64,000 bases of DNA, taken from positions 17,811 to 81,810 of the forward strand of contig JBBWZL010000010.1 of NCBI GenBank assembly GCA_039649045.1, given 5' to 3'. Shown piece after piece: positions 12,156 through 55,941 of the stretch. The stretch's first letter is position 1. Every line of letters starts with the position of its first letter. Source of the stretch: Verrucomicrobiota bacterium (GTDB lineage: Bacteria > Verrucomicrobiota > Verrucomicrobiia > Chthoniobacterales > UBA10450). A program made the translations under genes and the position numbers. A model generated the notes under the pieces. That model saw only the letters and a program-made list of their open reading frames with translations. It was not told where the DNA came from and searched no databases.

Positions 12156-12160
12156 CCCGG

Positions 12161-24200: not shown

Positions 24201-25489
24201 CGCCAGTTGCGGTGTTGACCGCGACGCCGACCTCCGGCGCAGCGCCGCTCAATGTCAAATTCGACGGCACCGGCTCGTCCGACCCTGATTTTAGCGACAC
24301 GCTCGTAAGTTACACATTCAAGTTTGGCGACGGCACTCCTGACGTCACGCAGGGATCGCCTGTGGTTAATCACACCTATACTAGCGGCGGAACTTACACC
24401 GCGCGGCTGGTTGTGACTGATTCACGTGGAGCGATGAGCCAAAACCCTGCCGAGCAAGTAATCACTGTAACACAAACAAACCCATCGCCCACGCCGACAG
24501 CTACTGCCACTCCTACCGCGACGCCAACGGCGAGCCCCACTGCTACGCCAACGGCGACACCCACTGCTACGCCTACCGCAACACCGACCGCAACTCCAAC
24601 AGCGACGCCTACCGCTACACCCACAGCGACGCCTACGGCTACGCCGACCGCAACGCCTACCGCCACACCCACAGCGACGCCTACTGCCACGCCGACCGCC
24701 TCTCCGGTTAACGTTCAGCTGGTTAATATATCGGGCCGCGTCTTCGCCCAGACCGCCGATAAGGTCGGAATCGGCGGCTTCATTGTGACCGGTCCCGGGA
24801 CCAAGCGCGTGATGGCGCGTGCCATAGGCCCGTCGATGAAAGTCAATGGGACCCCAGTTCCTGGCCGGATCCAAAATCCCTACCTCGAGCTCCACGACAG
24901 CAACGGAAGTCCACCGATTATTAATGATGACTGGCGCTCCGACCAGCAGGACGAGATTATCGAGACCGGTCTTGCGCCCCCGGACAACCGCGAGTCGGCA
25001 ATCGTGAAACGGCTACCAGCGGGCAATTATACTGCCATTATCCGCGCCGCGGATGGCACCCCGGGCATAGGATTAGTAGAGCTATACGACCTCAGTGTCA
25101 CAGATCCGGGAGAGCTCGGCAATCTGTCTGTGCGCGCTGATGTTGGCCTCGATGATAATGTTCTCATCGATGGTTTGATCCTGCAGGGCGGCAATCCGAA
25201 ACGCGTTCTGTTCCGAGCCCTTGGTCCTTCGATCACGACGCCACCTGGGACCCTGCAAAACCCGATGATGTCACTCTACAATTCCCAGGGGACGCTCCTG
25301 CGCGCCAACGATGACTGGGGGCAGGCGACAAATGCCAGCGAAATCCAGATGACCGGCCTTGCGCCACCTAACAGTAAGGAACCGGCTATCCTCTTGAGCT
25401 TAATAGCCGGAAACTACACCTGTATCGTGGAAGGGGTAGGTCGCACGACAGGAATCGCAGTTGAGGAAGCCTACAAGCTCGATAACTAG
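21287..25489 (+). CDS. paralogous giant secreted BNR/Asp-box + FN3-like + PKD protein with (TATP)n linker and tandem C-terminal module
   Basis: Trimmed to ATG 21287 ([30 protein letters not shown]). Asp-boxes ([24 protein letters not shown]). The PKD domain, (TPTA)n linker and C-terminal ~260 aa are ~90% identical in DNA to 16958..21172. Confidence 0.8.
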
Positions 25490-28671: not shown

Positions 28672-28684
28672 GGGGCGAAGAAGA

Positions 28685-28771
28685 GCTGAAACGCTGAAAA
28701 ACTGAAAAGCGAAAATATGCGAAAGTGCTCATTTCAGCGTTTCTGAATCTCAGTGTTTTAGCATTTTTTCA
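28685..28771. repeat. octamer word hairpin (GCTGAAAC/GCTGAAAA...; complement arm TTTCAGCG...)
   Basis: Left arm 28685-28716 (4 units), 14-nt spacer, right arm 28731-28771 in inverse orientation. Complementarity is imperfect. Lies directly after the stop at 28671. Confidence 0.8.
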
Positions 28772-28816
28772 GAATAGGCGTGACTTGTTCCGCCATTCTC
28801 TTCACACTGGACGCCG

Positions 28817-33216: not shown

Positions 33217-33501
33217 GATTCTTGAAGGAATTGAGGTTCCCCACGAGAACACCCGTTCCGTGGCGAATTGTCGACAAGAAACTGCAATTTCCAGACAATT
33301 TTTTTCCGGACGGTGGTTTTGCTGGGGAACGCGTGCTGAAGGCCGAGCAGCTTAACCGCGGATTACCCGCCTTTGCCCGGGACGGGCTACGCCGTGGCGA
33401 GCGCAGATGACGCGGATGGAGGGAAGCTGTCCGCCGTACTCCTGGCGAAGGAGGATTAACCGATCACTCGCGAGCGCTTCGCGATCCTGCCCCTCAGCGT
33501 T

Positions 33502-36500: not shown

Positions 36501-36717
36501 CGCTGGCGGAGGGTGAGGGCTTGGCGGTGGGTGTCGGCGAAGGCTTCGGCGCGCTCAGCGCGGACGAGGCGACGAGGAAAGTAGAAAGTAGGAAGTAGGA
36601 AGTAGGAAGTAGAACGGAGCGAACCAAGAGGGAAGAAAACGCCGAACGCCCAAGGCCCAACGTCCAACGTCCAATGACAAAAGCAGAGGTGAGAGATGTG
36701 GGAATTACGCGAATCAT
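33502..36717 (-). CDS. PEP-CTERM-anchored PATR-repeat protein
   Basis: PATR units throughout. C-terminus IPEPSTWIGGALALAAIGFMSRKRFNRKTETLKS. The N-terminal ~45 codons are encoded by heptamer word arrays and the start codon is uncertain. Confidence 0.8.
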   Translation of the reverse strand: MIRVIPTSLTSAFVIGRWTLGLGRSAFSSLLVRSVLLPTSYFLLSTFLVASSALSAPKPSPTPTAKPSPSASASPSATVTGSKRSPTPIPMPSATPVDARRDWGNTGTDFNTNANWSAGTGGLAPGVGDVGWFTSAAVTQPNLSASVNIAALYFSSAASSGYDITSTGAATFTLTANQATTTTGLTNSDSAAIASVSTGTNTIDASIILAPVSGGISTFNQGASGTLIINGGISGSGITLNLPGAGTITLAGGNSYSGGTTLSGGTLNINNTSAIGTGAFTINVGTTIDNTTAGAITLTTNNAITLGGNFTFGGTKDLNLGTGAITNAGSRTITLNGVGSTLTLGGLMTNTVGGTQTTTVNGAGNTFSLGSYALANTATSRTGIFNGTGNVTITGIVSNGSTATASKLTYAGTGTLTLSGASTFGGGFTLNSGTVALGADSTGAITNGPLGTGTFTLTNTGTGIAVQAVGASHTLNNAVAITTDATINGSQNLTLGGTWTQTNSNQITNNIGAGKVFTLGAFNLSSSSTARTLTIAGTGDTTFGGIISNGSGTTGGFIDLSTGTVLLTAANSYSGNAAGTTIGSTSADAGTLRLSGAGTLGSTSNVLILRGGTLDLNGTTQTVGNITLGGGSATTPNITLGGGTLNLGGTVTYSQTNNPNSATISGAGAVSLNGTRTFSIGDSTATTTELTIGSIIQDGSGSSGISKQSSGTMVLSGANTYTGKTTITAGTLSINSIQNAGSTTPNSLGEPAVGANSIIDLAGTLQYTGSTAGSSDRVINLTGATGGAGSLDASGATTFSLSGGVTSAGTSGTTTLTLTGSTTGSESDVIANGTSTNVTTVNKTGAGTWTLSGANIYSGGTSVTGGTLLVVNTTGSGTGTSSVVVSNAGTILSGGTTTGVGGITGQVAINPDAKLSPGTSGNGSGTTAILHTGALTLVAASNFAVDLNGTTAGTGYDQVISSGAIVLTGANIVVTASNSLQLLDKFFVLENSSLTTNTGTFAQGATVTADNGYVFAINYVDTGDLTPGNDISLTLTAIPEPSTWIGGALALAAIGFMSRKRFNRKTETLKS
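36581..36677. repeat. two heptamer word arrays (GTAGGAA x5 at 36581-36615; CCAACGT-type x5 at 36643-36677) inside the 5' end of 33502..36717
   Basis: Direct reading of the sequence. On the sense strand they encode ..IGRWTLGLGRSAF..VLLPTSYFLLSTF.. Confidence 0.85.
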
Positions 36718-36825
36718 GACCGGAAAACTACGGAAGTGCGCATCACATCCCTTTCCGCAAAGCGTGTCAACGAAATTTCCAGAATTATCTAAGAAAAGTT
36801 ATTCACACGTAAGAAGGCGGGGGAA

Positions 36826-36854
36826 GTGACGCGTGACGAGTGACAAGTGAAGTG
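36826..36854. repeat. heptamer word array GTGACGC/GTGACGA/GTGACAA/GTGAAGT
   Basis: Four phase-locked units in the intergenic region. Confidence 0.8.
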
Positions 36855-40591: not shown

Positions 40592-40728
40592 TCAGAGGTC
40601 AGAGGTCAGAGGTTCGCCGCGGCGAACCCCGTCCTTCGGCGGATCGGAGGTCGGCCTGCCAAGCCAGAGCCTTGGCGTAGGATGGAGGAAGGCGACGCGG
40701 CCAGAGATCAGAGGTCGGAGGCCGGAAG
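40592..40728. repeat. mosaic spacer made of four elements
   Basis: Elements in order: TCAGAGG x3 (40592-40612), an 18-nt perfect palindrome GGTTCGCCGCGGCGAACC (40611-40628), GC hairpin copy B (40653-40688), and a TCAGAGG/TCGGAGG array (40701-40728). The two heptamer arrays are in direct orientation. Confidence 0.8.
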
Positions 40729-43435: not shown

Positions 43436-45250
43436 TCAGCGGATGTTTTCGACAAGCGCGGCCTCCTCCGGCAAAAGCCGCTTCCGGTCGACCTCGCGCA
43501 TCTCCGTGGCTGCATCCTCGCTCCGCCCGTTCGCGGCCAGGACCGCGGCATGCACCGCCAGGGCAGACGGCGTCAACGCGCCGCGGGCGACCTGAATACC
43601 CGAATACGCATCCATTGCGTCGCTCAATTTTCCCAGGCGAAACCGCGCCAGAGCGAGCAGAGTCCGATGCGGCAGACTGGACGGCTCTCGCTGGACGAGC
43701 TGAGCAGCAAGTTGCTCAAGCGTTATCAGTTCTTGGTTATTTGTTACTCGTTCTGACCTCTGACTTCCGTCCTCCGACCTCTGCGATTGCTGCGCATTCA
43801 TGAGCAGCAATCGCGTATACGCTTCGTCGTTTTGCACCGCCGGGTCGTTAGGCCAGATCGCCAGCATCTCCGCGAGGACGGCATGGATTTTCTTGGTCTC
43901 GCCCGTGACCTGCGCGAGCCGCAGCCGGCCCTGGTGCGCCGCGCGCAGCCGGGGCGACTCGGCCACGGCCTCGTCGTAGGCAGCGCGCGCCACATCGGTC
44001 ACGCCATTTTTTTCCGCATAACCTGCGAGCGTAATCAGCTTGCCCGGATCGCCCCGGGCTGCCTCCAGCGCGCGCTGCCAATTATTTTCCGACGCGGCTT
44101 TTTCGCCGAGCTGTGCGTTGCAGCGCGCGAGATACATTTTCTGCACGAACGGATCGAGCGGGTAACGATCGCGATCGAGCAATTCCTTGATCTCTTTCCA
44201 GCGGCCGAGACCGCCGAGCGCATCGACGTATTGCAGGAAAAGCTCGCGCGATTGCAGCGCTCTCTCGATCGGGATGGCATCGAGCACGCGCTGGAATTCA
44301 CTCTTGCCATTCAACCACGTCGCGAGCGCCGCCGCTTCATCCGGTGTTCCATCTTTCCATTGCGCGACCGCTTTCGCGATCAGCTCGGCGCGCGTTTCAG
44401 GTTGCTGGCGCATCTTCAAATCGACCGCGAGCAATTTCTGCGGCGCGCGGGCGAGGGGATGCGCCTCGAGCTTTTCCGACAAATCGAGCGGCGCGATCGG
44501 GAAAGTTTCCGGGATTTTTTCCGATGAAAGCGCTGTCTGCGCCAGGACCGTGAGCGCATCGACCCCGGCGGCATCGCCCGTTTCCGATATTTTCTTCAAC
44601 CAGGACCAGGCTTCGCTGCGCCAGTTTTCGTTGCCCGCGGAAATCGCGATGTCCAGCAGCGCGGCCTGTAGTTTTCCCCGGCCGCTCGCCCGCGCATCGC
44701 CGAAAATTTTTTGCAACGCATCGTGCGCTTCGATAGCGGCGCCCTGCCGGGCGGAGAGTTGCGCCGAGAGCAAATAGTCCAACGGCATAACGGGGCCGTT
44801 CGTTCCACTGAGGAGCGCGCGGATCGCGCGGGTCGCGCGGGCATCGTCGCCCGCGAGTAGCGCGATGGTCGCCTCATCGGTGAGATCAACGCGGGTGAGA
44901 CGGGTGCGTTGCTCTAGCCGGTCCCAGAATTCCAGCGCCTGCGCCTGCCGGGTTCGCGAAAGAAAACGGGCGATGGCCCGAATCGCTTCCGGTTCGTCCG
45001 GCCACAATTGATAAGCGCTCGCCACTTCCTTGCGGGCTTCGTTCCAATCCTCTTTCTCCATCAGCGCAAAGGCCGTGCGAGCGTGGCGTCGCGCCTGCCA
45101 GGCCTTGATACCATGCAGGACAGGCCGCCCGCCGAAGATTCCGCCGAGCCCGAGAACGAGGACGAGGAGGAGCGCGACGATAATGCGTTTGCGCCTGCGA
45201 GTTCGAAGCCGCAGCTCCTCCTCGGTCAACATGAAGTCGTCGGCGCGCAT
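43436..45250 (-). CDS. membrane-anchored TPR-like repeat protein (possible exosortase-system accessory)
   Basis: N-terminal TM helix (IIVALLLVLVLGLGGIFGG), then a helical-repeat composition. Last gene of the exosortase operon. Contains an in-frame heptamer array (43753-43787) encoding SQRSEDGSQRSE. Confidence 0.65.
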   Translation of the reverse strand: MRADDFMLTEEELRLRTRRRKRIIVALLLVLVLGLGGIFGGRPVLHGIKAWQARRHARTAFALMEKEDWNEARKEVASAYQLWPDEPEAIRAIARFLSRTRQAQALEFWDRLEQRTRLTRVDLTDEATIALLAGDDARATRAIRALLSGTNGPVMPLDYLLSAQLSARQGAAIEAHDALQKIFGDARASGRGKLQAALLDIAISAGNENWRSEAWSWLKKISETGDAAGVDALTVLAQTALSSEKIPETFPIAPLDLSEKLEAHPLARAPQKLLAVDLKMRQQPETRAELIAKAVAQWKDGTPDEAAALATWLNGKSEFQRVLDAIPIERALQSRELFLQYVDALGGLGRWKEIKELLDRDRYPLDPFVQKMYLARCNAQLGEKAASENNWQRALEAARGDPGKLITLAGYAEKNGVTDVARAAYDEAVAESPRLRAAHQGRLRLAQVTGETKKIHAVLAEMLAIWPNDPAVQNDEAYTRLLLMNAQQSQRSEDGSQRSERVTNNQELITLEQLAAQLVQREPSSLPHRTLLALARFRLGKLSDAMDAYSGIQVARGALTPSALAVHAAVLAANGRSEDAATEMREVDRKRLLPEEAALVENIR

Positions 45251-45681
45251 CAGAAGTCAGAAGTCAGAGGTCGGAACTGCGGAATGATTCGTTCTTCCGT
45301 ATCATTCCGCCGAGCATTCGTCCGATCTCAGCGCCACGCGAAGTAAGTTGCTTATGTTGATCGTGCGAGATGTAACCGCACGCCAGGGCAAAATCGAGGG
45401 ATGAATCCGTTTCGCTGTTTTCAACGTCACAATCCGTCAGCTTGCTTAGAAAATGCGCTTCATAAGGTCGTTTGGCCCACGCTTCTCGGAGATTCAAACA
45501 GACAGATCTCGAGGATCGCCTGATTTGACTGGTCAAAGCGTATTTTTCTTCTGACGGAAAAGTTTTTGTGGCGTCAAAAATCTCCATCGCGAGCTGATAC
45601 GCGGATTTGTAAACCTCCAGATCCTTAGCCGTTTCAATCTTCACGCTTTCTGACCTCCGCTTTCTGACCTCCGACCTCCGG
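45250..45681 (-). mobile_element. IVS-like cassette: four-helix-bundle gene bracketed by inverted heptamer arms (45250-45277 and 45647-45681)
   Basis: The arms are 21/28 complementary. On the sense (minus-strand) RNA, 3 of the mismatches become G:U pairs. The cassette lies exactly between the exosortase and TPR ORFs. Calling it a mobile element is inference. Confidence 0.35.
45264..45644 (-). CDS. four-helix-bundle protein (23S rRNA intervening-sequence protein / Avd family, TIGR02436-like)
   Basis: KDLEVYKSAYQLAMEIFDATKTFPSEEKYALTSQIRRSSRSVCLNLREAW..FL..CDVENSET matches the family pattern. Trimmed to GTG 45644, which overlaps the exosortase stop by 11 nt. Its TGA stop lies inside the heptamer arm. 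Confidence 0.75.
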   Translation of the reverse strand: MKIETAKDLEVYKSAYQLAMEIFDATKTFPSEEKYALTSQIRRSSRSVCLNLREAWAKRPYEAHFLSKLTDCDVENSETDSSLDFALACGYISHDQHKQLTSRGAEIGRMLGGMIRKNESFRSSDL

Positions 45682-47376
45682 TTCAACCGTTTCCCTGAGG
45701 AGTTCTGCGAATTTGTCTTCGGCCATTTGATCGTCCATCGGTTGCGAGCTGACAAAAATCACTTCCAGAACTTGCTGCCCCAGATTCCGAATTCCATTTC
45801 GCACCGTCCGGAAACGCGCCTTCATGGACCAATCGGGCTGCACGCCTTCGGCGAGCTGTAGATCTGGCCGCGGCTCATCGGCGTGCGTCTTGTCTTCCTG
45901 CAAACAAAAAAACGTGTGCGCGACAGCGTTCCCGTTGCCCTGCCGAAAGGTGATGTGCCGCGCCACGATCGGAATATTCTCGCGCGCGAGATAAGTTTTT
46001 GCGCCGCGATCGGCGAGTTGCTGCCAGCCGATGCTCGGCAGGCAAATGTCCGGCCGGTGGGCCCGCGCCCGCAGCACGCTCGCGCTGCCTGGATTCCAGC
46101 GAAAGAAAAACAGATAATTGGTCGTCGAAAAACCGGGTGCGGCGTCTGCAATCGTTCTCCAAGTCACTTCGCGGCCCAAATCGAACCGCAATGTTTGCCG
46201 GACCGATTCATCGATTTTGATTTCGCGAAATCCCGGCGCCTTTTCCGGCGGACGAACACTCCAATTGCCGCGCGCAGTGAGATTCTTCTCATGCGCCCGA
46301 TACCACTCATGGGCTCCAGCTTCGACCGCAACGAGCCAGAGAAGGCAAAGGATGAAGGATGAAGGATGAAGGAGGAAGTGGGGCCGGAGGTCGGAGGTCG
46401 GCTCTGACTTCTGACTTCTGCCCTCTGCCCTCCGACCTCCGTTTCCGCCTTCCGCCTTCCGCCTTCCGCCTTTCTCCAACAACGCGGCGAGCAAGAGCGA
46501 GCCGCAGAAAACAGCCGCAACAATCGTGTATCCGGCAAAATCGTGCCATCGATCCACGGCCGAGATGCTTTGGGTCGCGGCGATCCAGACGAGGAAAAAG
46601 GCGCGCGCAAAGTTGGCGATGATGGCGATGGCCAGCGCGCCCAGAACAAGAAGAATTCGGCGCGTAACCGACAGCCGCTTCAGTTCGCCGAAGAGCAAGC
46701 CAATCATGATCGAAGTCTGCAATGAACGCACGCCGCTGCACGCTTCGTTCACGCCGACCAGGCCAGTGCTGACGCGGATGAGATTGCCTTCGAGTTGCGC
46801 GGGAATGCCGAAAAGGGTGATCGTCTCACTCGCCACCGCCGCGACGATCCGCATAAGGCCCTGGACGATTGGTTGCTCAATCGGAGAAACCCACGGCACC
46901 GCGACGAAAAAAAACGCGACGGGAAAAGCGAAATGCCGCACCCACGGTTTGCCGCCCGCCAACCAAAGCACGAGCAAAGTCATCGTCACCACCACGCCTG
47001 TGTGCACCCAACCCAGCGGCCGCCAATCCGGGTTCGCGATTTCAAACAACCGGATCGGCAACAGGAGCAGCAGCGCCCCAATTGCAATCGCGATCGCAAT
47101 TCCGCGTTTCCTCCTTCCTCCTTCCTCCTTCCTACTTTCCCCCCGATCGTCCCAGCGCAACCAAAACAAAAACAGCGCGAAGAACGGAACGAACCATCCG
47201 TAGCTGTATTGCTCGTTGTCCGACCACTCGCCGCTCAGTTGCCGGCAGAGAACAAACCAGAGCGCGAGCAATAACAGGCCCGACAGCAGAATCCTCGAAA
47301 GTTTGCTTCGGCGCACCGACTCTGGTTTCAACCGAATCGAAATGGCGTCGTTCACGGCGGGGCGAAGATATTCCAC
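45634..47376 (-). CDS. exosortase (PEP-CTERM type) fused to a C-terminal EpsI-like domain
   Basis: Multi-TM N-terminal half with NEACSGVRSL (catalytic Cys), ANFARA (Asn/Arg) and WHDFAGY (His) motifs. The C-terminal ~230 aa are EpsI-like. Three word-array segments are in frame (47110-47137, 46349-46474, 45647-45681). Confidence 0.85.
   Translation of the reverse strand: MEYLRPAVNDAISIRLKPESVRRSKLSRILLSGLLLLALWFVLCRQLSGEWSDNEQYSYGWFVPFFALFLFWLRWDDRGESRKEEGGRRKRGIAIAIAIGALLLLLPIRLFEIANPDWRPLGWVHTGVVVTMTLLVLWLAGGKPWVRHFAFPVAFFFVAVPWVSPIEQPIVQGLMRIVAAVASETITLFGIPAQLEGNLIRVSTGLVGVNEACSGVRSLQTSIMIGLLFGELKRLSVTRRILLVLGALAIAIIANFARAFFLVWIAATQSISAVDRWHDFAGYTIVAAVFCGSLLLAALLEKGGRRKAEGGNGGRRAEGRSQKSEPTSDLRPHFLLHPSSFILCLLWLVAVEAGAHEWYRAHEKNLTARGNWSVRPPEKAPGFREIKIDESVRQTLRFDLGREVTWRTIADAAPGFSTTNYLFFFRWNPGSASVLRARAHRPDICLPSIGWQQLADRGAKTYLARENIPIVARHITFRQGNGNAVAHTFFCLQEDKTHADEPRPDLQLAEGVQPDWSMKARFRTVRNGIRNLGQQVLEVIFVSSQPMDDQMAEDKFAELLRETVEPEVGGQKAEVRKRED
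46349..46474. repeat. 18 phase-locked heptamers (126 bp) forming an imperfect hairpin inside the exosortase ORF
   Basis: Units in order: AGGATGA x3, AGGAGGA, AGTGGGG, CCGGAGG, TCGGAGG, TCGGCTC, TGACTTC x2, TGCCCTC x2, CGACCTC, CGTTTCC, GCCTTCC x3, GCCTTTC. The core CGGAGGTCGGAGG and CCTCCGACCTCCG are perfectly complementary. Confidence 0.9.
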
Positions 47377-47429
47377 ATTCGCCCGGGCACGAAAGTTAAT
47401 AGCTGGGTTCTCCCGCCGCAGACCGCATA

Positions 47430-47458
47430 TTGAGCATTGGCGGTCATGAGTTTATAAG
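47430..47458 (+). promoter_or_regulatory. putative sigma70-type promoter of the EPS operon (TTGAGC-N17-TATAAG)
   Basis: Lies in the 92-bp divergent spacer. The -10 element ends 10 nt before ATG 47469, implying a near-leaderless transcript. Motif match only. Confidence 0.35.
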
Positions 47459-47468
47459 GGCGTGCTGA

Positions 47469-48461
47469 ATGACACAGAAACAGTGTGAGATCGTGGTGGG
47501 CGGGGCCGGCGGTTTTATCGGCGGACACCTCGTGGCCGATCTGCGCAAGGCGGGCGCAGAAGCTATTCGCGCCGTGGATATCAAGCCCGCCTCGGAATGG
47601 TATCAGCGCTTCGATGACGTGGAGAACCTCACTCTGGATCTACAGGACCGCGCCGCGTGTGAAAGCGCGTTGGAGGGCGGCGCGCGGGAAGTTTACAATC
47701 TTGCCGCCGACATGGGCGGCATGGGTTTCATCGAGCACAACAAAGCGCTCTGCATGCTCTCGGTCCTGATCAACACGCATCTGCTCATGGCGGCGCGGGC
47801 GGCGAAGGTGGAAAAATTCTTTTTCGCCAGCAGCGCCTGCGTTTATGCGGCCGATAAACAAACTTCCCCGGACGTGACCGCGCTCAAGGAAGAAGACGCC
47901 TATCCCGCCATGCCGGAAGACGGCTACGGGTGGGAGAAGCTTTTCAGCGAGCGGATGTGCCGGCATTACACGGAGGATTTTGGCCTAACGACTTGTGTCG
48001 CGCGTTATCACAACGTCTATGGACCGCATGGCACCTACGACGGCGGACGCGAGAAAGCGCCGGCCGCGATCTGTCGCAAAGTCATCGCGGCGAAGCTGAG
48101 CGGCCGCCATGAAATCGAGATTTGGGGAGACGGTCAGCAGACCCGGAGCTTCATGTACATCGACGATTGCCTCAAAGGAACGCGCCTGATGATGGACCGC
48201 GCCATTCCCGGCCCGCTCAACGTCGGCAGCAACGAGCTGGTCACGATCGATCGCCTGGTCGACCTCGCGGAAGAGATCGCCGGCGTGAAACTAAAGCGCA
48301 ATTACAACCTGCAAGCGCCCAAAGGGGTCAACGGCCGGAACAGCGACAATGCCCGAATCCGCGAGGTCATGGATTGGGAGCCGTCCATTAGTTTGCGTGA
48401 TGGTTTGGAAAAAACCTACCGCTGGATTCACGATCAAATGACTGTCAGCAAAGCGCTCTGA
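47469..48461 (+). CDS. NAD-dependent epimerase, GDP-mannose 3,5-epimerase-like
   Basis: GGAGFIGGHL Rossmann motif. Strong resemblance to the GME pattern: ADMGGMGFI..., FFFASSACVY, YGWEKL, ARYHNVYGPHGTYDGGREKAPAAICRK, IWGDGQQTRSFMYIDDC. Confidence 0.7.
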   Translation: MTQKQCEIVVGGAGGFIGGHLVADLRKAGAEAIRAVDIKPASEWYQRFDDVENLTLDLQDRAACESALEGGAREVYNLAADMGGMGFIEHNKALCMLSVLINTHLLMAARAAKVEKFFFASSACVYAADKQTSPDVTALKEEDAYPAMPEDGYGWEKLFSERMCRHYTEDFGLTTCVARYHNVYGPHGTYDGGREKAPAAICRKVIAAKLSGRHEIEIWGDGQQTRSFMYIDDCLKGTRLMMDRAIPGPLNVGSNELVTIDRLVDLAEEIAGVKLKRNYNLQAPKGVNGRNSDNARIREVMDWEPSISLRDGLEKTYRWIHDQMTVSKAL

Positions 48462-48496
48462 AACGTGCGCTCCATTTGGGCCACCTCATTCTTGCC

Positions 48497-49270
48497 ATGT
48501 CATCCGGAGTTGCGGCGGGTTCGTCCGAAAGATTTCAGCAGATCCTCGGCATCCGCTTCTTCGATGGCACTCCGGCGGGGGCGGTCGCTTATCTCAAGCG
48601 CGTTGGCGGATACGTGGTTGTGCCCGCGGCGCCAGCGCTGGTGAAACTGCGTTACGATGAAGCTTTTCGCGCGGCGCTTGTGCAATCCGATCTCGCAATT
48701 GCCGACAGCGGATTGATGGTCTTACTCTGGAAACTTTTTGAACGCCGGCGCATTTCCCGCATCTCCGGGCTCGCTTACTTGAAGCGCCTTCTGGAGCTGC
48801 GGGAAATCCACGAGGCTGGAAAAGCCTTTTGGATTCTTCCCGCGGCATCCGCCGCCGAGAGCGCAAAGAAATGGCTCCGCGATGCGGGATTCGGCGTGTC
48901 GGACGAAGACTTTTACATCGCGCCTTTTTACGGAGCGGAGGTGAGCGACGAAGTTCTGGCTGCGGCCATCAATGCCCGGCGGCCCACCGACGTCATCATT
49001 GCCATTGGCGGCGGGCCGCAGGAAAAACTGGGATTATTCCTCCGAGACCATCTCGGATATCGCCCGGCCATCCATTGCATCGGGGCCGCGCTCGGTTTTC
49101 TGACGGGCGACCAGATCGCGATCCCGGATTGGGCCGACCGGCTTTACCTCGGCTGGCTCTTTCGCCTTTTCGCGCAACCGCGCGTGTTCATCCCGCGGCT
49201 CTGGAGTGCGCACGAGCTCCCATGGCTTATTTTCAAGTATCGTGAAAAACTGCCCCCCCTGAAAAACTGA
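48497..49270 (+). CDS. WecG/TagA/CpsF-family (GT26) glycosyltransferase
   Basis: ILGIRFFDGT..AVAYL...GGYVVVPAAPALV.. and ..VIIAIGGGPQEKL patterns. ATG 48497 preferred over TTG 48476. The stop codon lies inside the octamer array. Confidence 0.65.
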   Translation: MSSGVAAGSSERFQQILGIRFFDGTPAGAVAYLKRVGGYVVVPAAPALVKLRYDEAFRAALVQSDLAIADSGLMVLLWKLFERRRISRISGLAYLKRLLELREIHEAGKAFWILPAASAAESAKKWLRDAGFGVSDEDFYIAPFYGAEVSDEVLAAAINARRPTDVIIAIGGGPQEKLGLFLRDHLGYRPAIHCIGAALGFLTGDQIAIPDWADRLYLGWLFRLFAQPRVFIPRLWSAHELPWLIFKYREKLPPLKN

Positions 49271-49692
49271 AAAACTGAAATGCTGAAAGACTAAAAAATG
49301 CGCCTCCCAGAAGCGTTTCGAGAACGAACGAAAAAATATGCTTCAGCGATCATTCGGTTGTATGCGCAATTGCCGAGGACCCGGAAGGAAGTGGAAGTGT
49401 TGGGACATCAACTTCTTCGGTCTGGTACCTCAGTCGCAGCGCTCACCCGCGAAGCATCACGAGCTCGATCTGATGCTGAGTTCTGTTCCAAGATCGACGG
49501 AGCATTGCAGGAAGCGGATGAATCTCAGCTATGGATTGAACTTCTGCGGGAGGACTGCGGCATCGACGGCGCGCCTATCGAACACCTGCATCGGGAAACA
49601 AGCGAACTAATTGCGATCCTGGTAACAATGGCAAACAAGACAAAGCGCACTCTTAGATAATTTCAGCTTTTCAGTATTTTCGCGTTTCAGCC
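49259..49692 (+). mobile_element. IVS-like cassette: four-helix-bundle gene bracketed by inverted octamer arms (49259-49297 and 49661-49692)
   Basis: Left arm (CTGAAAAA x2, CTGAAATG, CTGAAAGA, CTAAAAAA). Right arm (TTTCAGCT, TTTCAGTA, TTTTCGCG, TTTCAGCC). 24/30 complementary. Sits exactly between the GT26 and carbamoyltransferase ORFs. Mobility is inference. Confidence 0.35.
49298..49660 (+). CDS. four-helix-bundle protein (23S rRNA intervening-sequence protein / Avd family)
   Basis: FRERTKKYASAIIRLYAQLP....VLGHQLLRSGTSVAALTREASRARSDAEFCSKI..ALQEADESQLWIELL matches the second common subtype of this family. Confidence 0.75.
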   Translation: MRLPEAFRERTKKYASAIIRLYAQLPRTRKEVEVLGHQLLRSGTSVAALTREASRARSDAEFCSKIDGALQEADESQLWIELLREDCGIDGAPIEHLHRETSELIAILVTMANKTKRTLR

Positions 49693-49699
49693 TTTGCCC

Positions 49700-51490
49700 A
49701 TGCTCATCCTCGGCCTCAATGCTTATCACGGCGATTCCGCGGCGTGTTTAATCAAGGATGGCCGGCTTGTCGCCGCGGCGGAGGAGGAGCGGTTTCGGCG
49801 CATCAAACATTGGGCCGGCCTGCCCACTCAGGCGATCGATTATTGCCTGCGCGAAGGCGGCGTCACGCTGCAGGACGTCGATCACATCGCGATCAATCGG
49901 AAACCTGGCGTGAACAACTGGCGGCGGCTTGCCTTTGTCCTGCGGCATCGGCCCGATCCGCGGTTGATGATGCAGAAAGTCCGCAACATTCGCAGCGCTT
50001 CATCGGTGCAGGAAGCTCTCGAGCGCGCCTACAAGGTGTCGTTAGGCGCCCAGGTCCATCACATCGAACATCATCTCGCGCATCTCGCCTCCGCCTTTCT
50101 CGTCTCGCGCTTCGACGAAGCGGCCTGCATTTCGATCGATGGCTTTGGCGACTTTGCCAGCACGGCGATGGGGAGCGGCCAGGGGAACCGGATCGCGATC
50201 GAGGAGCGCGTTTATTTTCCGCACTCGTTAGGCATCTTTTATTCGGCCCTGACCCAGTTCATCGGCTTCCCGCACTTTGGCGACGAATACAAAGTGATGG
50301 GCCTGGCGCCGCTGGGCGAACCGAAATATCTCCAGGAAATGCGCCAGCTCGTTCGGATCCAGCCGGACGGCACCTTCAAGTTGAATCTCAAATATTTCCG
50401 GCATCACACCGATAACGTTTCCTACACTTGGAACGACTGCGCCCCGGAAGTCGGCACGCTTTACACCGGGAAATTGAGCGAGCTGCTCGGATCCGAACGC
50501 GGCGAAGGCGATCCTCTCGAACAACGACACAAGGACCTGGCTCGCTCGGCCCAGGCGATGTATGAGAAAGCGTTTTTCGGTCTGCTGAACGCGCTTCATA
50601 AAAAACATCCTTCGCCGAACCTCGCGCTCGCGGGCGGGTGCGCGATGAACTCGGTCGCGAATGGCAAAGTCTATTTGCGCACCCCGTTCCGAAAAATGTA
50701 TCTGCCCGCTGCCGCGGGCGACGCCGGCGGCGCCATCGGCGCAGCGGCGGTTGTGCAAGCACAACTCGCGGAGGTCAGACGTCAGAAGTCAGAGGTCAGC
50801 CAGAGGCGCATCGCCTTGGACGATGCTTATAGCGGTCCGCAGTTCTCCGACGAGGAAATCCATCAACTGCTGCGAGATCGCGGCGTTGTCTCATCTGACC
50901 TCCGATCTCCGACCTCCGACCTCTCGGTCGAACACATGACCGATAGCAACGAACTTTGTCGCCGCACCGCAGCCGCCATCGCAGATGGCAAAGTCGTCGG
51001 TTGGTTTCAAGGACGGATGGAGTGGGGGCCTCGCGCTCTCGGGAACCGCTCGATCCTGTGCGATCCGCGGCGTTGGGACATGAAGGAAATTCTGAATCTC
51101 AAGATCAAGCGCCGCGAATCGTTCCGTCCGTTCGCGCCTTCGATTTTGCGCGAAGCTGTCGCCGAATGGTTCGAGCAGGACGATGACGTGCCCTTCATGA
51201 TGGAAGTCTTCCAAGTTCGCCCGATAAAACGCGCTTTCATTCCGGCGGTCACGCACGTCGATGGCTCCGGCCGGCTCCAAACCGTGCATCGCGAAACCAA
51301 TCCGCTTTATCACCATCTGATCTCCGACTTCTATTCGCTGACCTCGGTCCCGATGGTGTTGAACACCTCCTTCAACGAAAACGAACCGGTCGTTTGCCGC
51401 CCCGAAGAAGCGCTCGATTGTTTTCTGCGCACGAAAATGGATCTGCTCGTCATGGGCAATTTCCTGATCACCCGTTCGAACGCTCTCTAA
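49700..51490 (+). CDS. carbamoyltransferase (NodU/CmcH family)
   Basis: MLILGLNAYHGDSAACL.., EERFRRIKH, GWFQGRMEWGPRALGNRSIL.DPR, VTHVDGSGRLQTV. ATG 49700 preferred over TTG 49694. Two in-frame heptamer arrays at 50768-50802 and 50891-50925. Confidence 0.85.
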   Translation: MLILGLNAYHGDSAACLIKDGRLVAAAEEERFRRIKHWAGLPTQAIDYCLREGGVTLQDVDHIAINRKPGVNNWRRLAFVLRHRPDPRLMMQKVRNIRSASSVQEALERAYKVSLGAQVHHIEHHLAHLASAFLVSRFDEAACISIDGFGDFASTAMGSGQGNRIAIEERVYFPHSLGIFYSALTQFIGFPHFGDEYKVMGLAPLGEPKYLQEMRQLVRIQPDGTFKLNLKYFRHHTDNVSYTWNDCAPEVGTLYTGKLSELLGSERGEGDPLEQRHKDLARSAQAMYEKAFFGLLNALHKKHPSPNLALAGGCAMNSVANGKVYLRTPFRKMYLPAAAGDAGGAIGAAAVVQAQLAEVRRQKSEVSQRRIALDDAYSGPQFSDEEIHQLLRDRGVVSSDLRSPTSDLSVEHMTDSNELCRRTAAAIADGKVVGWFQGRMEWGPRALGNRSILCDPRRWDMKEILNLKIKRRESFRPFAPSILREAVAEWFEQDDDVPFMMEVFQVRPIKRAFIPAVTHVDGSGRLQTVHRETNPLYHHLISDFYSLTSVPMVLNTSFNENEPVVCRPEEALDCFLRTKMDLLVMGNFLITRSNAL

Positions 51491-52158
51491 TGATTGAGCC
51501 TCTCTGTTACGGAGCCGTTAATCAGCAAATTGCCTCGCGGGTACCTGCCGGTGCGCAACGGATTCTGGATATCGGATGCGGCACGGGGACGCTTGGGCGG
51601 GAGCTTAAAAAGCGACGCCAACGAGAAATTATTGGAGTGACGCATTCGGAAGAGGAAGCAGTTTTGGCTTCCGAATATTTGGACGACGTTCTCGTTTGCG
51701 ATTTGAATCGCCCTGCTTTGGATTCCCTCGGGCTTTTCGATTGCATTATCTGTAGCCACGTCCTTGAGCACCTCTCCAATCCTTCCGAGCTGCTCATACA
51801 ATTAAAGCAACATCTCTTGCCTGATGGCATTCTCCTGGTCGCATTGCCCAACATTCTTTTTTGGAAACAACGATTCGAGTTCATGCGCGGCCGTTTTCGC
51901 TATACATCCGGAGGGCTCATGGATTCGACCCATTTTCGATTTTTTGATTGGGAGAGCGCATGTAACCTGATCGAAGCCGCCGGGTACAAACTGGTAGAGC
52001 GCGCGGCCGAGGGAAGTTTTCCCATGCCCTTTTTGCGCCGATTAGTGCCTCGCTTTGCGGGAAGGATGGACGAAATGGCCTGCTCGTTCCTGCCAGGGCT
52101 TTTCGGCTGGCAATTTGTTTTTGTGGCGATGAAACCTGAAGCACCTGGGCATTCCTGA
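51490..52158 (+). CDS. class I SAM-dependent methyltransferase
   Basis: ILDIGCGTGTLGREL motif. ATG overlaps the upstream TAA (TAATG). Confidence 0.75.
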   Translation: MIEPLCYGAVNQQIASRVPAGAQRILDIGCGTGTLGRELKKRRQREIIGVTHSEEEAVLASEYLDDVLVCDLNRPALDSLGLFDCIICSHVLEHLSNPSELLIQLKQHLLPDGILLVALPNILFWKQRFEFMRGRFRYTSGGLMDSTHFRFFDWESACNLIEAAGYKLVERAAEGSFPMPFLRRLVPRFAGRMDEMACSFLPGLFGWQFVFVAMKPEAPGHS

Positions 52159-55100
52159 TGTGCGGTATCGCAGCCATTTTTGGATACGGCGTTGATGCTC
52201 CACCGGTCGATCGTGATGAGCTGATCGCCATTCGCGATCGGATGATTCGCCGCGGGCCCGATGGCGAAGGCCTCTGGATCTCGGAGGATCGCCGCGTAGG
52301 CCTGGCCCATCGACGCCTCACGATCGTAGATCTCACGGACGCGGGCCTGCAACCGATGTGGACCAGCGATCGCGCGCTCTGCGTTTCGTTCAACGGCGAA
52401 ATCTACAACTATCCTGCGCTACGCGCGCAATTATCCGAGCGTGGTTATCAGTTCAGATCGAATTGCGACACCGAAGTATTACTCCATCTCTATGCCGAGA
52501 AGGGGCCTGAGATGGTCCACGATCTTCGCGGGATGTATGCCTTCGCCATCTGGGACGTAAAGCAGCGGAGCCTGTTTTGCGCGCGCGACCCCTTCGGGAT
52601 CAAGCCGCTTTACTATGCGGACGACGTCCGAACGATTCGCATCGCCTCACAGGTCACGGCTCTCCGGGCAGGAGGGCACATCGATACGACGCCTGAGCCT
52701 GCCGGGCACGTTGGATTTTTTCTCTGGGGCTCGGTGCCGGATCCGTTCACCCTTTATCGCGGGATCAGCGCACTGCCCGCAGGCCACACGCTCACAATCC
52801 GCGAAGGGGGCACACCCGAGATTCGTTCGTATTGTTTTATCCCGGATATCTTGCGTGAAGCAGAATTAGAGATCGGAGATCAGAAGTCAGAAGTCGGTGG
52901 GGAACAACGCGAAATTCTTCACGCCGCGTTGCGCGACAGCGCCGAGCATCATCTTATGGCCGATGTGCCGGTGGGCATTTTCCTTTCCGCCGGACTCGAT
53001 TCATCCACGCTCACCGCGCTGATCAGCGAACGGCATGAGGACGTCCGCACGGTCACACTCGGCTTCAACGAATACCGCGGCGGCGAACAGGACGAGACGC
53101 TGCTGGCGGAAGTGGTCGCGCGCACTTGCAAAACCAATCACCAAACCATCTGGGTCACGCGCCGTGATTTTGAAGGAGACGCCGCCCGGCTCTTCGAGGC
53201 AATGGACCGGCCGACGATCGATGGCGTGAACACCTATTTCGTCAGCCTCGCGACCAGGCGGGCCGGACTGAAAGTGGCGATCTCCGGCCTGGGCGGCGAC
53301 GAATTATTCGGCGGTTACCCCAGTTTCCAGGATGTTCCTCGCATCGCCAACCGACTCCGCCATTTCCGCCGATTCGGAAAACTTGCGCGCGGCTTTCGCA
53401 TCGTAACGCAGGATGTGATCAAACATTTCGCTTCGCCGAAGTACGCCGGAATTTTCGAATACGGCTCGAGTTATCCCGGCGCCTATTTGTTGCGCCGCAG
53501 TCTTTTCATGCCGTGGGAACTCCCCGAATTTCTCGACCCGGAATTGGTGCGCGAAGGCTGGGCGCGCTTGAACACTTTCGGCGAGTTGGCGGGGATTTGC
53601 GATTCGCTCGATTCCGAGCGGCTCAAAGTCTCGGCGCTCGAACTTTGCTGGTATATGCGCCACCAGCTTTTGCGCGATTCCGATTGGGCCGGCATGGCCC
53701 ATTCGCTCGAAATCCGCGTGCCGCTCGTCGATGTGAAGCTGCTGCGGGAAATTGCGCCCTTGCTCGCTTCGCCGCGCCCGCCTGGAAAACGCGACATGGC
53801 GTTGTCTCCCCGCACGCCATTGCCCGAAGCGGTCCTCTCTCGTCCAAAGACCGGTTTCACCATGCCGGTGCGCGACTGGCTTTTGCAATCGTTCGATCCC
53901 CTGTCGGCCGGCGAACGTGGTCTGCGCGGTTGGGCGCGTTACGTCCATGGTGAATTCGTGCAGGACTCCGGCGCGGCCTCTACGGTCTTGCGCCGCTCGC
54001 GCGCCACGCGCGCTCGTGCCACTGGCGCGCGCAAAATTTCACGGATCCTTGTTTATCGCATCGGCCAGCTCGGCGACACCATCGTGGCGTTGCCCGCCAT
54101 GTGGGCGATAAAGGAAAATTTTCCTGACGCGGAGCTGACGCTGCTTTGCGATCAACATCCGCACACCAACTACATTCTCGCTTCCGGCCTGCTGCGAGAC
54201 GCCGGAATATTTCACGATTTCCTGGCGTATCCGGTGGAGAAACTTGGCACCAGCTCTGCGCGCCGCGCGACTGAGCTCGTGAAAAAATTGCGCGAACGGA
54301 ATTTTGATACCCTCGTCTATCTGGCCCCATCGGCTCGAGGGCCGGGGCGCGTCCGGCGCGATCGCTGGTTTTTCCGCGCGGCCGGCATCCGCACTTTTAT
54401 TGGGATGACCGGTTTCCCGCGGTTTCAGAAAAGGACCAGCGGCGCCGCGCTCGCCAGCGCCCCGCGCGAATTCGAATTATTGCTCCTGCGTCTGCGTGAA
54501 TCCGGGTTGCGTGTCTCTTTGCAAAATCCACGCTTCGACCTCGGGCTCGGCCAGCGCGAAGAAACAGACATAGCGCGCTGGCTCGAGACGCAACCTCAAC
54601 CCGACGGCCATCGTCGCTGGATTGCGGTAGGCCCGGGATCCAAAATGCCGGCGAAGCAATGGCCCCTCGAACGTTACGACCAGGTCGTGCGCGATCTGAT
54701 TGCCGGCTTCGACATCTGGCCCGTCGTTTTCGGCGGGGAAGAGGACCGCGAGATTGGCGATGGATTGATTGAGCGCTGGGGTCGCGGCTATAACGCCGCC
54801 GGCGCGCTCGGTGTTCGCGCCGCTGGCGTCGCCTTAAAACGTTGCGAGCTTTACCTCGGCAACGACACCGGCACGATGCACCTCGCTGCCGCCGCCGGCA
54901 TCCGGTGCGTTGCCGTCTTCTCGTCACGCGAGCGTCCCGGTCTGTGGTATCCTGCCGGAAGTGACAACCGCGTTTTCCGTTCCGAGATCGACTGCGAAGG
55001 ATGCGGCCTGAAGGTGTGCATCACTCGAAACATCGAATGCCTTCGCCGGATTGATTCACAATCGGTCACGGCTGCGTGCACCGAGCTGCTGGCTGGTTCG

Positions 55101-55197: not shown

Positions 55198-55941
55198 GTG
55201 ACAACTGACTCATCGAAGCAAGTCCGGGATCAATATGATACCTGGCATGCGCGCCGCGCGGCGGCCCGAGAAGATAGGACTTTGCGTCCTTGGCATCGAA
55301 CGGTGCTGAAGCTGTTGCCCGACCTCAACGGGTTGTCCGTTTTGGAAATCGGCTGCGGCTCAGGATCCTTTTCCCTTTTGCTCGCGGCCCGCTATCCGGA
55401 AGCGAAAATAACGGCGGTCGATTTTTCCGAAAGAGCGATCGAGGCAGCACTCGATCGGCAGCGTCAAGCGGGAACGCGGATCGAATTCATGGTGAAGGAT
55501 GCGCAACGGCTGACTTTTCCCGATGGCCGCTTCGACTTTGTCTTTTCCTGCGAATGCCTGGAACACCTTCCCGAACCGGGGAGGATGTGTCAGGAAATCG
55601 CGCGAGTCCTCAAGCCGCGAGGCGAATGGATTCTGACAACGGAAAATTATTTTAACGGGATGGTTCTAGCCTGGTTGATGTCCATCGCGAAAAGACGTCA
55701 TTTCGATTCCGGTTCCGGCGTCCAGCCCCACGAGAATTTTTTTCTATTCTGGCGTGTCCGGCGAATGGTGGAGCAAGCCGGCCTCGAGATTCGTCACATG
55801 GAGAGCAATCACTTTCAGTGGCTCCTGCTCCCCAGAGTCGCGCCCGACAAACTTCGCACAGACGATTTTCAGACGCCTTTTCTCAGGCGCCTTTTGCGTC
55901 CGTTTGGACGGCACTTCACCTTCAAGGGGACGAAAGCCTAG
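55198..55941 (+). CDS. class I SAM-dependent methyltransferase
   Basis: VLEIGCGSGSFSLLLA motif. Start set to GTG 55198, the first start codon after the upstream stop. Uncertain. Confidence 0.7.
   Translation: MTTDSSKQVRDQYDTWHARRAAAREDRTLRPWHRTVLKLLPDLNGLSVLEIGCGSGSFSLLLAARYPEAKITAVDFSERAIEAALDRQRQAGTRIEFMVKDAQRLTFPDGRFDFVFSCECLEHLPEPGRMCQEIARVLKPRGEWILTTENYFNGMVLAWLMSIAKRRHFDSGSGVQPHENFFLFWRVRRMVEQAGLEIRHMESNHFQWLLLPRVAPDKLRTDDFQTPFLRRLLRPFGRHFTFKGTKA

Follow-up and report, generated by a model that had tools for sequence, protein, structure and literature searches.

Among the closest described relatives of the locus treated here are the intervening sequences (IVS) of bacterial 23S rRNA. 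In Coxiella the IVS carries an S23p open reading frame (ORF) in the loop of a 28-bp stem, which is formed by terminal inverted repeats and cleaved by RNase III (PMC4990558). A protein of the same fold is Avd of the diversity-generating retroelements (DGR): in its pentamer all five protomers touch an RNA stem-loop, with flipped-out bases lying between protomers (10.1101/2023.10.23.563531). Tandem heptamers without known function have been catalogued in several bacteria. GGGAATC occurs about 170 times in a Xanthomonas genome, with 70-75 convergent pairs, and GGGGA(C/T)T heptamers are found in Nostoc; four units are preferred in both genera (Rehm et al., PMC4692102, a text that mentions neither S23 nor four-helix proteins). 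TAACTGA repeats of Beggiatoaceae, Cyanobacteria and Bacteroidetes sit immediately before start codons and contain stop codons in every frame, with a binding protein left unidentified (MacGregor, PMC4679880). Here we describe a cassette at positions 49259-49695 of a 64,000-nt stretch of contig JBBWZL010000010.1 from a Verrucomicrobiota bacterium (the whole stretch is called the window below), in which a gene of the IVS protein family lies between two inverted arrays of tandem octamers at an operon junction. This widespread class of cassette was found in no earlier description and is in kind akin to an ORF-bearing IVS. No publication linking PF05635 genes to tandem-word arms or to heptamer simple sequence repeats (SSRs) was found, subscription-only literature being outside the search.

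Anatomy of the cassette

The cassette separates a GT26 glycosyltransferase gene from a carbamoyltransferase gene (Table 1). Its left arm is composed of five units, in order CTGAAAAA CTGAAAAA CTGAAATG CTGAAAGA CTAAAAAA, and the right arm of four, TTTCAGCT TTTCAGTA TTTTCGCG TTTCAGCC. They belong to the generic types CTGAAANN (upstream) and TTTCAGNN (downstream), and in repeat notation the tandem word array of this subtype, called A below, is (CUGAAANN)4-5. The arms are complementary at 24/30 nt (80%, inverted repeat I2), the range over arms of 30-35 nt being 71-80%. Tandem Repeats Finder (TRF) and repeat-family analysis thus agree with a preliminary description of the window, made from its letters alone, which had counted five and four flanking octamers with the same complementarity.

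The elements of the locus are packed in the order host stop, arm, ORF, arm, host start, and the arrays abut all four start and stop codons. The 3' end of the GT26 gene (CTG AAA AAC TGA, 49259-49270), that is its last three codons and its stop, is encoded by the left arm; the stop (49268-49270) falls within the second word. TGA triplets at 49260, 49268 and 49276 supply one stop in each of the three reading frames. The cassette ATG begins at A 49298, the final base of the fifth word, and the carbamoyltransferase ATG (49700, the start used by orthologues; the ORF list gives a TTG at 49694) stands 7 nt past the last word. The preliminary description had reported these three contacts as a host stop inside the left arm, a one-base overlap of the cassette ATG with the last left unit and a downstream start within 8 nt of the right arm, and each of them holds.

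The pairing potential of the arms is high. The arm-arm RNA duplex reaches -26.5 kcal/mol against -13.7 +/- 2.9 for dinucleotide shuffles and 0/1000 shuffles were as good, so that in this comparison, set beforehand, the arms pair better than shuffled sequence. The minimum free energy (MFE) and centroid folds of the whole cassette are both closed by the arms. A promoter and terminator scan in and around the cassette gave nothing above shuffle expectation and therefore no evidence for a promoter or an intrinsic terminator of its own. Rfam searches of 44000-52000 identified no rRNA or other family at the arms, the sole matches being chance miRNA hairpins at 46350-46477. PADLOC returned no defence-system match and PHROGs no match for the window cassette protein.

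The four-helix-bundle protein

The product matches PF05635 (23S_rRNA_IVP; 53 bits, cut-off 33.8) and TIGR02436 (70.8 bits, cut-off 24). Its AlphaFold2 model (predicted local distance difference test, pLDDT, 95) consists of four helices. Foldseek matches the model best to BT_0352 (2RLD; E 1e-5, template modelling (TM) score 0.79-0.90), XCC0516 (2GSC; TM ~0.77-0.81) and Avd of the DGRs (4DWL and the ribonucleoprotein of the 8UB7 series; TM ~0.7-0.78), and phmmer against the PDB also retrieves 2RLD (E 4e-16). The 2RLD, 2GSC and 4DWL depositions each hold five chains, and by analogy with these solved relatives the cassette protein most likely forms a pentamer. The contact between Avd and its RNA is a direct precedent for a four-helix-bundle (4HB) fold reading a stem with periodically unpaired bases. 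The number of units in arrays, both near 4HB genes and elsewhere in the loci, peaks sharply at 4-5 and drops steeply above five, which fits a pentamer without proving one.

Other assignments were considered. A HEPN-like RNase is ruled out by the conserved core, which lacks the Rx4-6H motif. The protein is not the DGR accessory Avd and the locus is not a DGR: the NCBIfam Avd model NF033474 does not match the window protein, and neither a reverse transcriptase (RT) nor a template/variable repeat is present among the neighbours inspected within ~6 kb (TPR, exosortase, epimerase, GT26, carbamoyltransferase, methyltransferase and AsnB/GT9 genes). The protein of another cassette in the window, the first cassette (see below), scores 38.8 with NF033474 (cut-off 80), and the PHROG annotated 'Avd' matches only that protein. 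The analogy with type III toxin-antitoxin systems was set aside, the units being of 7-8 nt rather than ~36 nt and the protein having no nuclease fold.

Each protein subtype is associated with its own word

Of 30 subtype-A genes, 28 have the CTGAAA word on one flank or both; they span several orders, and their protein identity falls as low as 64%. A contingency analysis of subtypes and words was carried out with 57 non-redundant 4HB genes, words being counted per 100-nt flank. Cognate words number 2.9/3.5 per flank for subtype A, 2.0/1.5 for B and 2.4/2.1 for C, whereas non-cognate words do not exceed 0.23 per flank (0.07 for subtype A) and the background is 0.04-0.13 per 100 nt. A further subtype, D, is accompanied by GTTATCN words (between carbamoyltransferase and AsnB genes in L052-L056) and a Bacteroidota type (Aureispira) by GTGAGAGR words. 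This word-subtype linkage therefore extends to at least five protein subtypes, each with its own word. The logo of 173 words from homologous loci reads N-R-CTGAAA, the six core positions being fixed by the search pattern; in the subtype-A spacer one position is free and the other purine-biased, and 94 of ~130 intervals have the 8-nt spacing.

Pairing between the two arms of one locus is not special to that locus. Over 11-12 arm pairs, the energy of an arm with its own partner averages -29.8 kcal/mol compared with -31.9 kcal/mol for cross-locus pairs (permutation p = 0.94), and spacer dinucleotides are complementary in 30% and 38% of cases within a locus against 29% and 49% between loci. Among roughly a dozen pairs of arms, the spacers showed no locus-specific compensatory change. 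When the four right arms from orthologous copies of this junction are aligned, 3/24 core columns vary as opposed to 6/8 spacer columns. The predicted stem therefore consists of 6-bp word helices split by mostly unpaired spacers. The preliminary description had argued from two cassettes with different words for a mechanism dependent on structure and not on any particular sequence. This view is not sustained, since the word is fixed within each subtype, the spacers are uncompensated and the two arms of a locus pair no better with each other than with arms from elsewhere. To judge from these comparisons, the pattern points to word-specific recognition that co-evolves with the protein.

In L002, L005 and L011 the variant words CTGAGA (left arm) and TCTCAG (right arm) tend to occupy the same ordinal place, first or second, when both arms are read 5' to 3'. 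An arm that is the reverse complement of the other would predict mirrored positions. This placement is possibly due to chance.

Occupancy of the junction and portability of the cassette

An exact-sequence look-up of the cassette protein gave no match, and a database search with it yielded 5,742 clusters of relatives. The best 120 (76-90% identity) come from Verrucomicrobia metagenomes wherever a source is named. The closest relative, in the Verrucomicrobiota metagenome-assembled genome L026, is 89% identical and occupies the same junction. Other homologues lie at many different junctions. In L005 the neighbours are a GT4 gene and the gene of a Wzt ABC transporter, in L006-L009 they are GT26 and a 520-aa gene without relation to the carbamoyltransferase, and in L001-L004 the cassette stands downstream of the carbamoyltransferase gene in opposite orientation. 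In all of L001-L009, CTGAAANN words are found upstream and TTTCAGNN words downstream. Scanning species-representative genomes added 26 loci with identities down to 64% and the same arms, in Chthoniobacterales, Pedosphaera, Akkermansiaceae, Luteolibacter, Terrimicrobiaceae and Kiritimatiellae. At least 5 of these 26 copies are pseudogenes (premature stops or frameshifts). The gene and its arms are a discrete portable cassette, whose occurrence does not depend on particular neighbours. The preliminary description took co-orientation with the host operon as a common trait, yet there are exceptions: in L001-L004, P0005 converges with the genes beside it.

The junction itself was surveyed in 80 metagenomic loci, using the N-terminus of the carbamoyltransferase as a probe and inspecting the sequence directly upstream of the conserved start. 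Its states were tallied among relatives with a carbamoyltransferase at least 70% identical. A subtype-A cassette with TTTCAG arms is present in the window, L026, L040 and L076. A 114-aa subtype B with GTAGRAA / TYCTAC arms occupies 12 loci (e.g. L002, L038), and subtype C, the type of the first cassette, with GGTCAGA / TCTGACC arms, seven. Six loci (L001, L036, L037, L044, L046, L063) carry a bare, gene-less short-loop hairpin of B-type or other words, and L043 an armless toxin-antitoxin (TA) pair composed of DUF433 and PIN-like proteins. Relatives in which the carbamoyltransferase is 69% identical or less have neither arms nor a 4HB gene there. A truly empty junction between GT26 and carbamoyltransferase genes was not recovered: all relatives with GT26 upstream have arms, a cassette or a TA pair. 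The preliminary description had asked for comparison with orthologous loci, where the 4HB gene might prove an ancestral member of the operon. It is not conserved there; other subtypes, bare hairpins or a TA pair take its place in orthologues, or the junction has nothing, and this variable occupancy means that the 4HB gene is not an ancestral member. Small modules of selfish appearance have colonised these junctions again and again. Site polymorphism extends to a second junction in the window, that of the exosortase and TPR genes, which holds subtype C in the window and a subtype-B cassette in L006-L009.

The polysaccharide clusters of L001-L003 and L043 also gather TA pairs (PIN, HepT/MNT, DUF433) and include a stray 58-68-aa C-terminal fragment of the carbamoyltransferase. 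L002 has four 4HB cassettes within 8 kb. The exopolysaccharide (EPS) cluster acts like a sink in which small selfish modules collect, and it shows signs of rearrangement at cassettes.

Selection and inheritance

The dN/dS ratio among subtype-A genes is 0.05-0.13, indicating purifying selection. Between the window and L026, dS is 0.38 for the cassette gene, 0.42 for GT26 and 0.53 for the carbamoyltransferase. The similarity of these values implies vertical inheritance of the cassette with its neighbours. Three subtype-A paralogues on one L002 contig differ by dS of 0.7-1.7, which excludes a recent burst. Judging from these substitution rates, the 4HB gene is functional, and its copy in the window has long resided at this site.

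The same arrangement in other phyla

When plasmids were searched with the first-cassette protein (tblastn), matches were almost exclusively cyanobacterial. Heptamer arrays flank the cyanobacterial plasmid genes inspected, with the complement on the far side in 4/6. The Nostoc punctiforme pNPUN02 gene has an AGCAGGG array and the PCC 7120 gene TCTGCCC on the downstream side only. In Anabaena sp. 90 plasmid pANA02 (L126, 598-966) the 4HB gene is located between cas6 and cas4 of a CRISPR-Cas operon, with GGTGACA / TGTCACC arms. Orthologues of XCC0516 (1424-1873 in both L120, X. campestris, and L123, X. citri) lie between accB and accC, which are essential genes. Four heptamers of GGGAATC type come after the accB stop codon, and another four, NATTCCC, run up to the ATG of accC. 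As in subtype A, these Xanthomonas arms are predicted to form word helices with mostly unpaired spacers, at a 7-nt period. All arm pairs tested across systems pair better than their shuffles (0/500). The word-subtype rule extends to Cyanobacteria, Bacteroidota and Xanthomonas. The X. citri orthologue of XCC0516 has a 3' frameshift and its ORF continues through the right arm into the accC start.

The first cassette and other word arrays in the window

The window contains a second instance of the gene-plus-arms layout, the first cassette (Table 1), in agreement with the preliminary description, which had recognised two cassettes of one architecture and had placed ORF 49298-49660 in the same family as the first cassette but in another subtype. 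Both proteins belong to the same Pfam family and are barely alignable (BLASTP E 0.07, 32% over 60 aa; no cross-hit with phmmer). The further claim that both cassettes encode host stops in their arms stands for the second, where the GT26 stop lies in the arm, and is not literally true of the first, where the exosortase reads through the arm. At 45634-45643 (minus strand) the exosortase is translated through the entire left arm, C-type words being stop-free in that orientation, and its TGA overlaps the opening codons GTG AAG ATT GAA of the first-cassette 4HB ORF.

Table 1. Cassettes, host genes and gene-less arrays discussed in the text (positions in the window)
Feature	Position	Strand	Evidence or remark
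Upstream host gene, WecG/TagA/CpsF (GT26) glycosyltransferase	48476-49270	+	PF03808, 77 bits
Left-arm repeat array, five octamers of type (N R) CTGAAA	49259-49298	+	TRF period 8, 5.0 copies; direct-repeat family D1
Cassette gene, 4HB protein of 120 aa, subtype A (MRLPE...KEVEVLGHQLLRSGTSVAA...)	49298-49660	+	PF05635, TIGR02436
Right arm, inverse words TTTCAG NN, beginning right after the stop TAA	49661-49695 (four words 49661-49692)	+	TRF; inverted repeats I1/I2
Downstream host gene, NodU/CmcH-type carbamoyltransferase	49700-51490	+	PF02543 + PF16861; start by orthologue alignment
First cassette, subtype-C 4HB gene between exosortase and TPR genes	45250-45680, ORF listed 45264-45755	-	Hidden Markov model (HMM), TRF
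First-cassette heptamer arm, GGAGGTC / AGAAAGC type	45644-45680		
First-cassette heptamer arm, TCTGACY type	45250-45276		
Solo subtype-A hairpin: CTGAAA-type words, 17-nt loop starting ATGCG, TTTCAG-type words	28680-28775	+	CTGAAA cluster scan
Orphan array, subtype-A antisense words AGCGTTTCAGCTTTTT x1.9	33496-33530	+	TRF; at 3' end of minus-strand PEP-CTERM/PATR gene

The solo subtype-A hairpin takes up the junction at which a PNP_UDP_1 gene meets a DUF3829 gene and is likely a gene-less derivative of the cassette or a target in trans. Another near-perfect solo hairpin (12035-12156; CGTTGAAG x7.2, a 25-nt loop and TAACGCTT x4.8; duplex -63.8 kcal/mol, z -9.2) exactly spans the gap from the stop of one minus-strand gene to the start of the next. 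No cognate 4HB gene for it is found in the window.

Word arrays are also translated. Inside the exosortase ORF (45634-47376, minus strand), four arrays at 46348-46472 (AAGGATG x4, GGAGGTC, CTCTGAC and TTCCGCC x4) compose a long hairpin that is read in frame as ...GGRRKAEGG...QKSE...TSDLRP...HPSSFIL.... The carbamoyltransferase contains subtype-C-type arrays in frame in an inter-domain linker at 50774-50799 and 50897-50923 (EVRRQKSEVSQ and SDLRSPTSDL). At the same two sites its orthologues have other word-derived inserts, or none (L026, L043), and in L001 a complete arm-loop-arm is inserted in frame. An array at 52880-52895, inside the AsnB/GT9 fusion gene, is translated as DQKSEVGGEQ; together with further short arrays (4918-4949, 40592-40613, 43752-43783, 47108-47137 and 55869-55895) it is made of TCAGAAG / TCAGAGG / TCTGACC / TTCCTCC words. 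In total the window has at least 20 arrays of period 7 or 8.

In the 5' region of a PEP-CTERM/PATR gene (36577-36674), GAAAGTA x5.4, a subtype-B word, lies beside the non-complementary AACGCCC x5.3, and an AGTGACG array (36825-36850) follows ~150 nt beyond. The window is devoid of a subtype-B 4HB gene. Long imperfect repeats at 20115-20394 and 24501-24699 have periods of 12, 24, 42 and 84 nt (units such as GCTACAGCAACC and CTACCGCGACGC); they appear to have no connection with the word arrays and are probably coding repeats of low complexity.

Proposed explanation and alternatives

We propose that the element is a slowly mobile cassette of operon junctions, similar to an IVS, and that its protein, a pentamer resembling Avd, recognises the arrays of its own word; we hold this reading to be moderately probable. 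We infer that the pentamer binds the word arrays of its own cassette as well as gene-less copies elsewhere in the genome and, in this proposal, word and protein therefore co-vary. The words might be bound single-stranded or as an interrupted stem. In the operon transcript the arrays would pair into an interrupted stem of 6-bp helices that loops out the cassette ORF, a geometry that matches the 23S rRNA IVS, which has the same protein family, and resembles the RNA stem bound by Avd. The arms would insulate the host genes: the left arm would halt translation in every frame, because its period is not a multiple of three and its word contains TGA, and the foot of the stem would put the upstream stop beside the downstream start. 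The transcript would perhaps be processed by an RNase III-type activity, as in rRNA IVS, and binding would feed back on the cassette start codon, which is located in the last word. The unit would be, or would have been, slowly mobile and would accumulate at permissive gene junctions. After arrival it would be inherited vertically under purifying selection, the pseudogenes and bare hairpins being occasional decay products. That a cassette is tolerated inside accBC, cas and EPS operons argues that it is near-neutral for downstream expression.

Several observations weigh against this proposal. L026 has a 23-nt loop and then four antisense words between its left arm and the ORF, from which it follows that a simple long-range stem enclosing the ORF is not strictly conserved. 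The fold energy of the whole cassette is unremarkable (z -1.29), only the arm-arm duplex standing out, and the conserved cores on both arms could partly result from selection for pairing alone. Period-7/8 arrays reach 9.6 per 10 kb in lineages whose carbamoyltransferase loci hold 24 4HB genes, against 0.2-0.5 per 10 kb where they hold none, a co-occurrence across loci that speaks for the link between arrays and genes but is confounded by phylogeny. As for movement, no direct repeat that would represent a target-site duplication brackets the arms (the flank-related pair D5 lies inside the right arm and the arm ends are fuzzy). The protein has no recognisable catalytic domain and cannot alone explain mobility. 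The paralogues are old and the window copy is vertically inherited; mobility is therefore slow or past.

The same body of evidence can be read in other ways. One alternative, in line with the structural view of the preliminary description, is an IVS-type element defined by structure only, in which the arms are an RNA stem cut by RNase III and the protein is unrelated to them. Significant arm pairing, an MFE fold closed by the arms, the difference in words between cassettes and the Coxiella and Leptospira IVS, with the same protein family, all speak for such an element. Yet a word that stays invariant within a subtype across the phylum, even where synonymous sites are saturated, is not what structure alone would maintain; nor are uncompensated spacers, own-arm pairing no better than cross-locus pairing, the competing local hairpin of L026 and the orphan single and in-frame arrays, which have no partner. 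We consider this explanation quite unlikely. The strongest of the rivals operates at the DNA level: the arms would be terminal inverted repeats (TIRs) made of tandem binding sites, as at the ends of Mu and Tn7 or in REPtrons, the 4HB protein would act with a host or unlinked nuclease, and RNA pairing would be incidental. It accounts well for junctions that are polymorphic for three subtypes, for bare hairpins of the same words and pseudogene copies, for the in-frame arrays in coding linkers and for a co-variation of protein and word like that of RAYT and REP, and the TA module at the same junction marks a sink for selfish DNA. It is less easily reconciled with the lack of a catalytic domain and of any target-site duplication seen, with the lack of recent identical copies (paralogue dS at least 0.7), with purifying selection that persists during vertical descent and with 6-nt words at a 7-8-nt period, a pattern found more typically where single strands, and not duplex DNA, are recognised. 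It seems unlikely, if still worth serious consideration.

The cassette might instead be a domesticated post-transcriptional regulator of exopolysaccharide operons, with the arms as operators. The strong purifying selection in situ, the high density of cassettes in clusters of exosortase and EPS genes (two within 5 kb in the window and four within 8 kb in L002) and the position of the cassette and downstream start codons, both abutting arms, would suit a host regulatory module. However, presence, absence and subtype replacement at one junction among close relatives, the same layout in unrelated operons (accBC, cas6|cas4 and plasmid type IV secretion system (T4SS) regions) and frequent pseudogenes would not, and we give this possibility little credence. 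Finally, heptamer SSRs are over-represented in some bacteria and have been attributed to replication slippage, so that the arrays might be ordinary SSRs, or products of chance, unrelated to the gene. Such an origin is very improbable given that the association of cognate words is diagonal across subtypes, the orientation is inverted on either side of the gene, the units differ at spacers instead of being identical and the copy number peaks at 4-5 and falls sharply above five.

Returning to the proposed word-reading cassette, a broader version is conceivable, which we put forward tentatively. PF05635 proteins in general might be the trans-acting partners of dispersed bacterial heptamer and octamer arrays, the pentamer of each subtype reading its own word in a REPtron-like layout without an HUH nuclease, with the 23S rRNA IVS only the best-known landing site. 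With the same reserve, the arrays concerned might include Xanthomonas GGGAATC, the cyanobacterial G-rich heptamers and short tandemly repeated repetitive (STRR) sequences, the TAACTGA type and the Verrucomicrobial arrays described here.

Implications

PF05635/TIGR02436 is a very large family with no known function outside DGRs; database searches gave 5,742 clusters for the present subtype and 7,867 for that of Xanthomonas. The presence of an own word around each subtype suggests that its members are possibly word-specific nucleic-acid binders that autoregulate or propagate. Three puzzles would thereby be joined: the ORF-bearing rRNA IVS (1993 onwards), the heptamer repeats of Xanthomonas, cyanobacteria and Beggiatoaceae, and the dense 4HB genes of polysaccharide, cas and plasmid operons. 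In Xanthomonas campestris, the accB-XCC0516-accC locus offers a tractable case, with a crystal structure of the protein and ~170 catalogued GGGAATC arrays. If word recognition is true, these proteins would constitute a natural set of small modular sequence-specific RNA/DNA-binding pentamers.

Comparison with known systems

Nunvar 2010, Bertels & Rainey 2011 and Ton-Hoang 2012 are said to have described REPtrons, in which RAYT transposase genes (REP-associated tyrosine transposases) are flanked by cognate repetitive extragenic palindromic (REP) sequences. REPtrons likewise bracket a gene with inverted copies of a short dispersed repeat, mostly at gene junctions, and subfamily and repeat co-vary. 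A comparable layout exists here, as seen in the subtype-word contingency, the extra arrays at 28680 and 33496 and the Xanthomonas GGGAATC arrays. REPtrons differ in having an HUH/Y1 nuclease and single palindromes, whereas the cassette has a 4HB protein without such motifs and tandem word arrays; the protein matches PF05635 only and not an IS200/IS605-type (HUH/Y1) transposase. More generally, the TIRs and insertion polymorphism expected of a transposon or a miniature inverted-repeat transposable element (MITE) are present at the cassette. A transposase is not, the sole ORF being a 120-aa helical bundle without a catalytic domain match.

Neisseria Correia elements and Rickettsia palindromic elements are short, co-transcribed and hairpin-forming inverted-repeat elements located at operon junctions or in frame. 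The solo hairpins and in-frame arrays of the window are similar, and the in-frame word inserts of the carbamoyltransferase behave like Rickettsia palindromic elements. Those elements are not known to have a protein gene of their own or to be built from tandem words. Integron cassettes resemble the present one in their small ORFs, their imperfect inverted repeats (attC) recognised by structure and their operon-like arrays. They have one downstream attC and an integrase, in contrast to the two-sided arms found here, in which word sequence matters, and to the scattering of the cassettes among resident genes. An integron cassette is ruled out by the two-sided tandem-word arms, and no integrase is present among the annotated neighbours, the rest of the window not having been scanned for integrases.

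The heptamer SSRs (GGGAATC, GGGGA(C/T)T, TAACTGA, STRR) are likewise tandem words, mostly intergenic, often within a few nt of start codons, often in convergent pairs and of about four units. Read forward, their words contain stops in every frame (PMC4692102, PMC4679880). The cassette arms share this form, with words of 7-8 nt beside start and stop codons, all-frame stops and a period of 8. The papers on heptamer SSRs draw no link to PF05635, whereas here arrays bracket such genes and GGGAATC brackets XCC0516. Avd of the DGRs (bAvd) has the same 4HB fold and sits as a pentamer on an RNA stem-loop, which makes it a plausible template for the recognition of an interrupted stem. It differs from the cassette protein (identity ~17%, NCBIfam Avd model silent) in being associated with an RT and a template/variable repeat, none of which is near the cassette.

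The 23S rRNA IVS of Leptospira and Coxiella burnetii encodes the same protein family in the loop of an inverted-repeat stem (PMC4990558), and the cassette likewise consists of a PF05635 ORF within terminal inverted repeats capable of forming a stem. These IVS are sporadic and are regarded as selfish elements, a further likeness to the cassette. They are inserted in helix 9, 25 or 45 of the rRNA, whereas the cassette lies outside 23S rRNA, between the protein-coding GT26 and carbamoyltransferase genes of an mRNA operon. The IVS stem is a near-perfect 28 bp, whereas the cassette arms are subtype-specific arrays of 7-8-nt words with unpaired spacers. The cassette differs finally in that its arm supplies the stop codon of the host gene.

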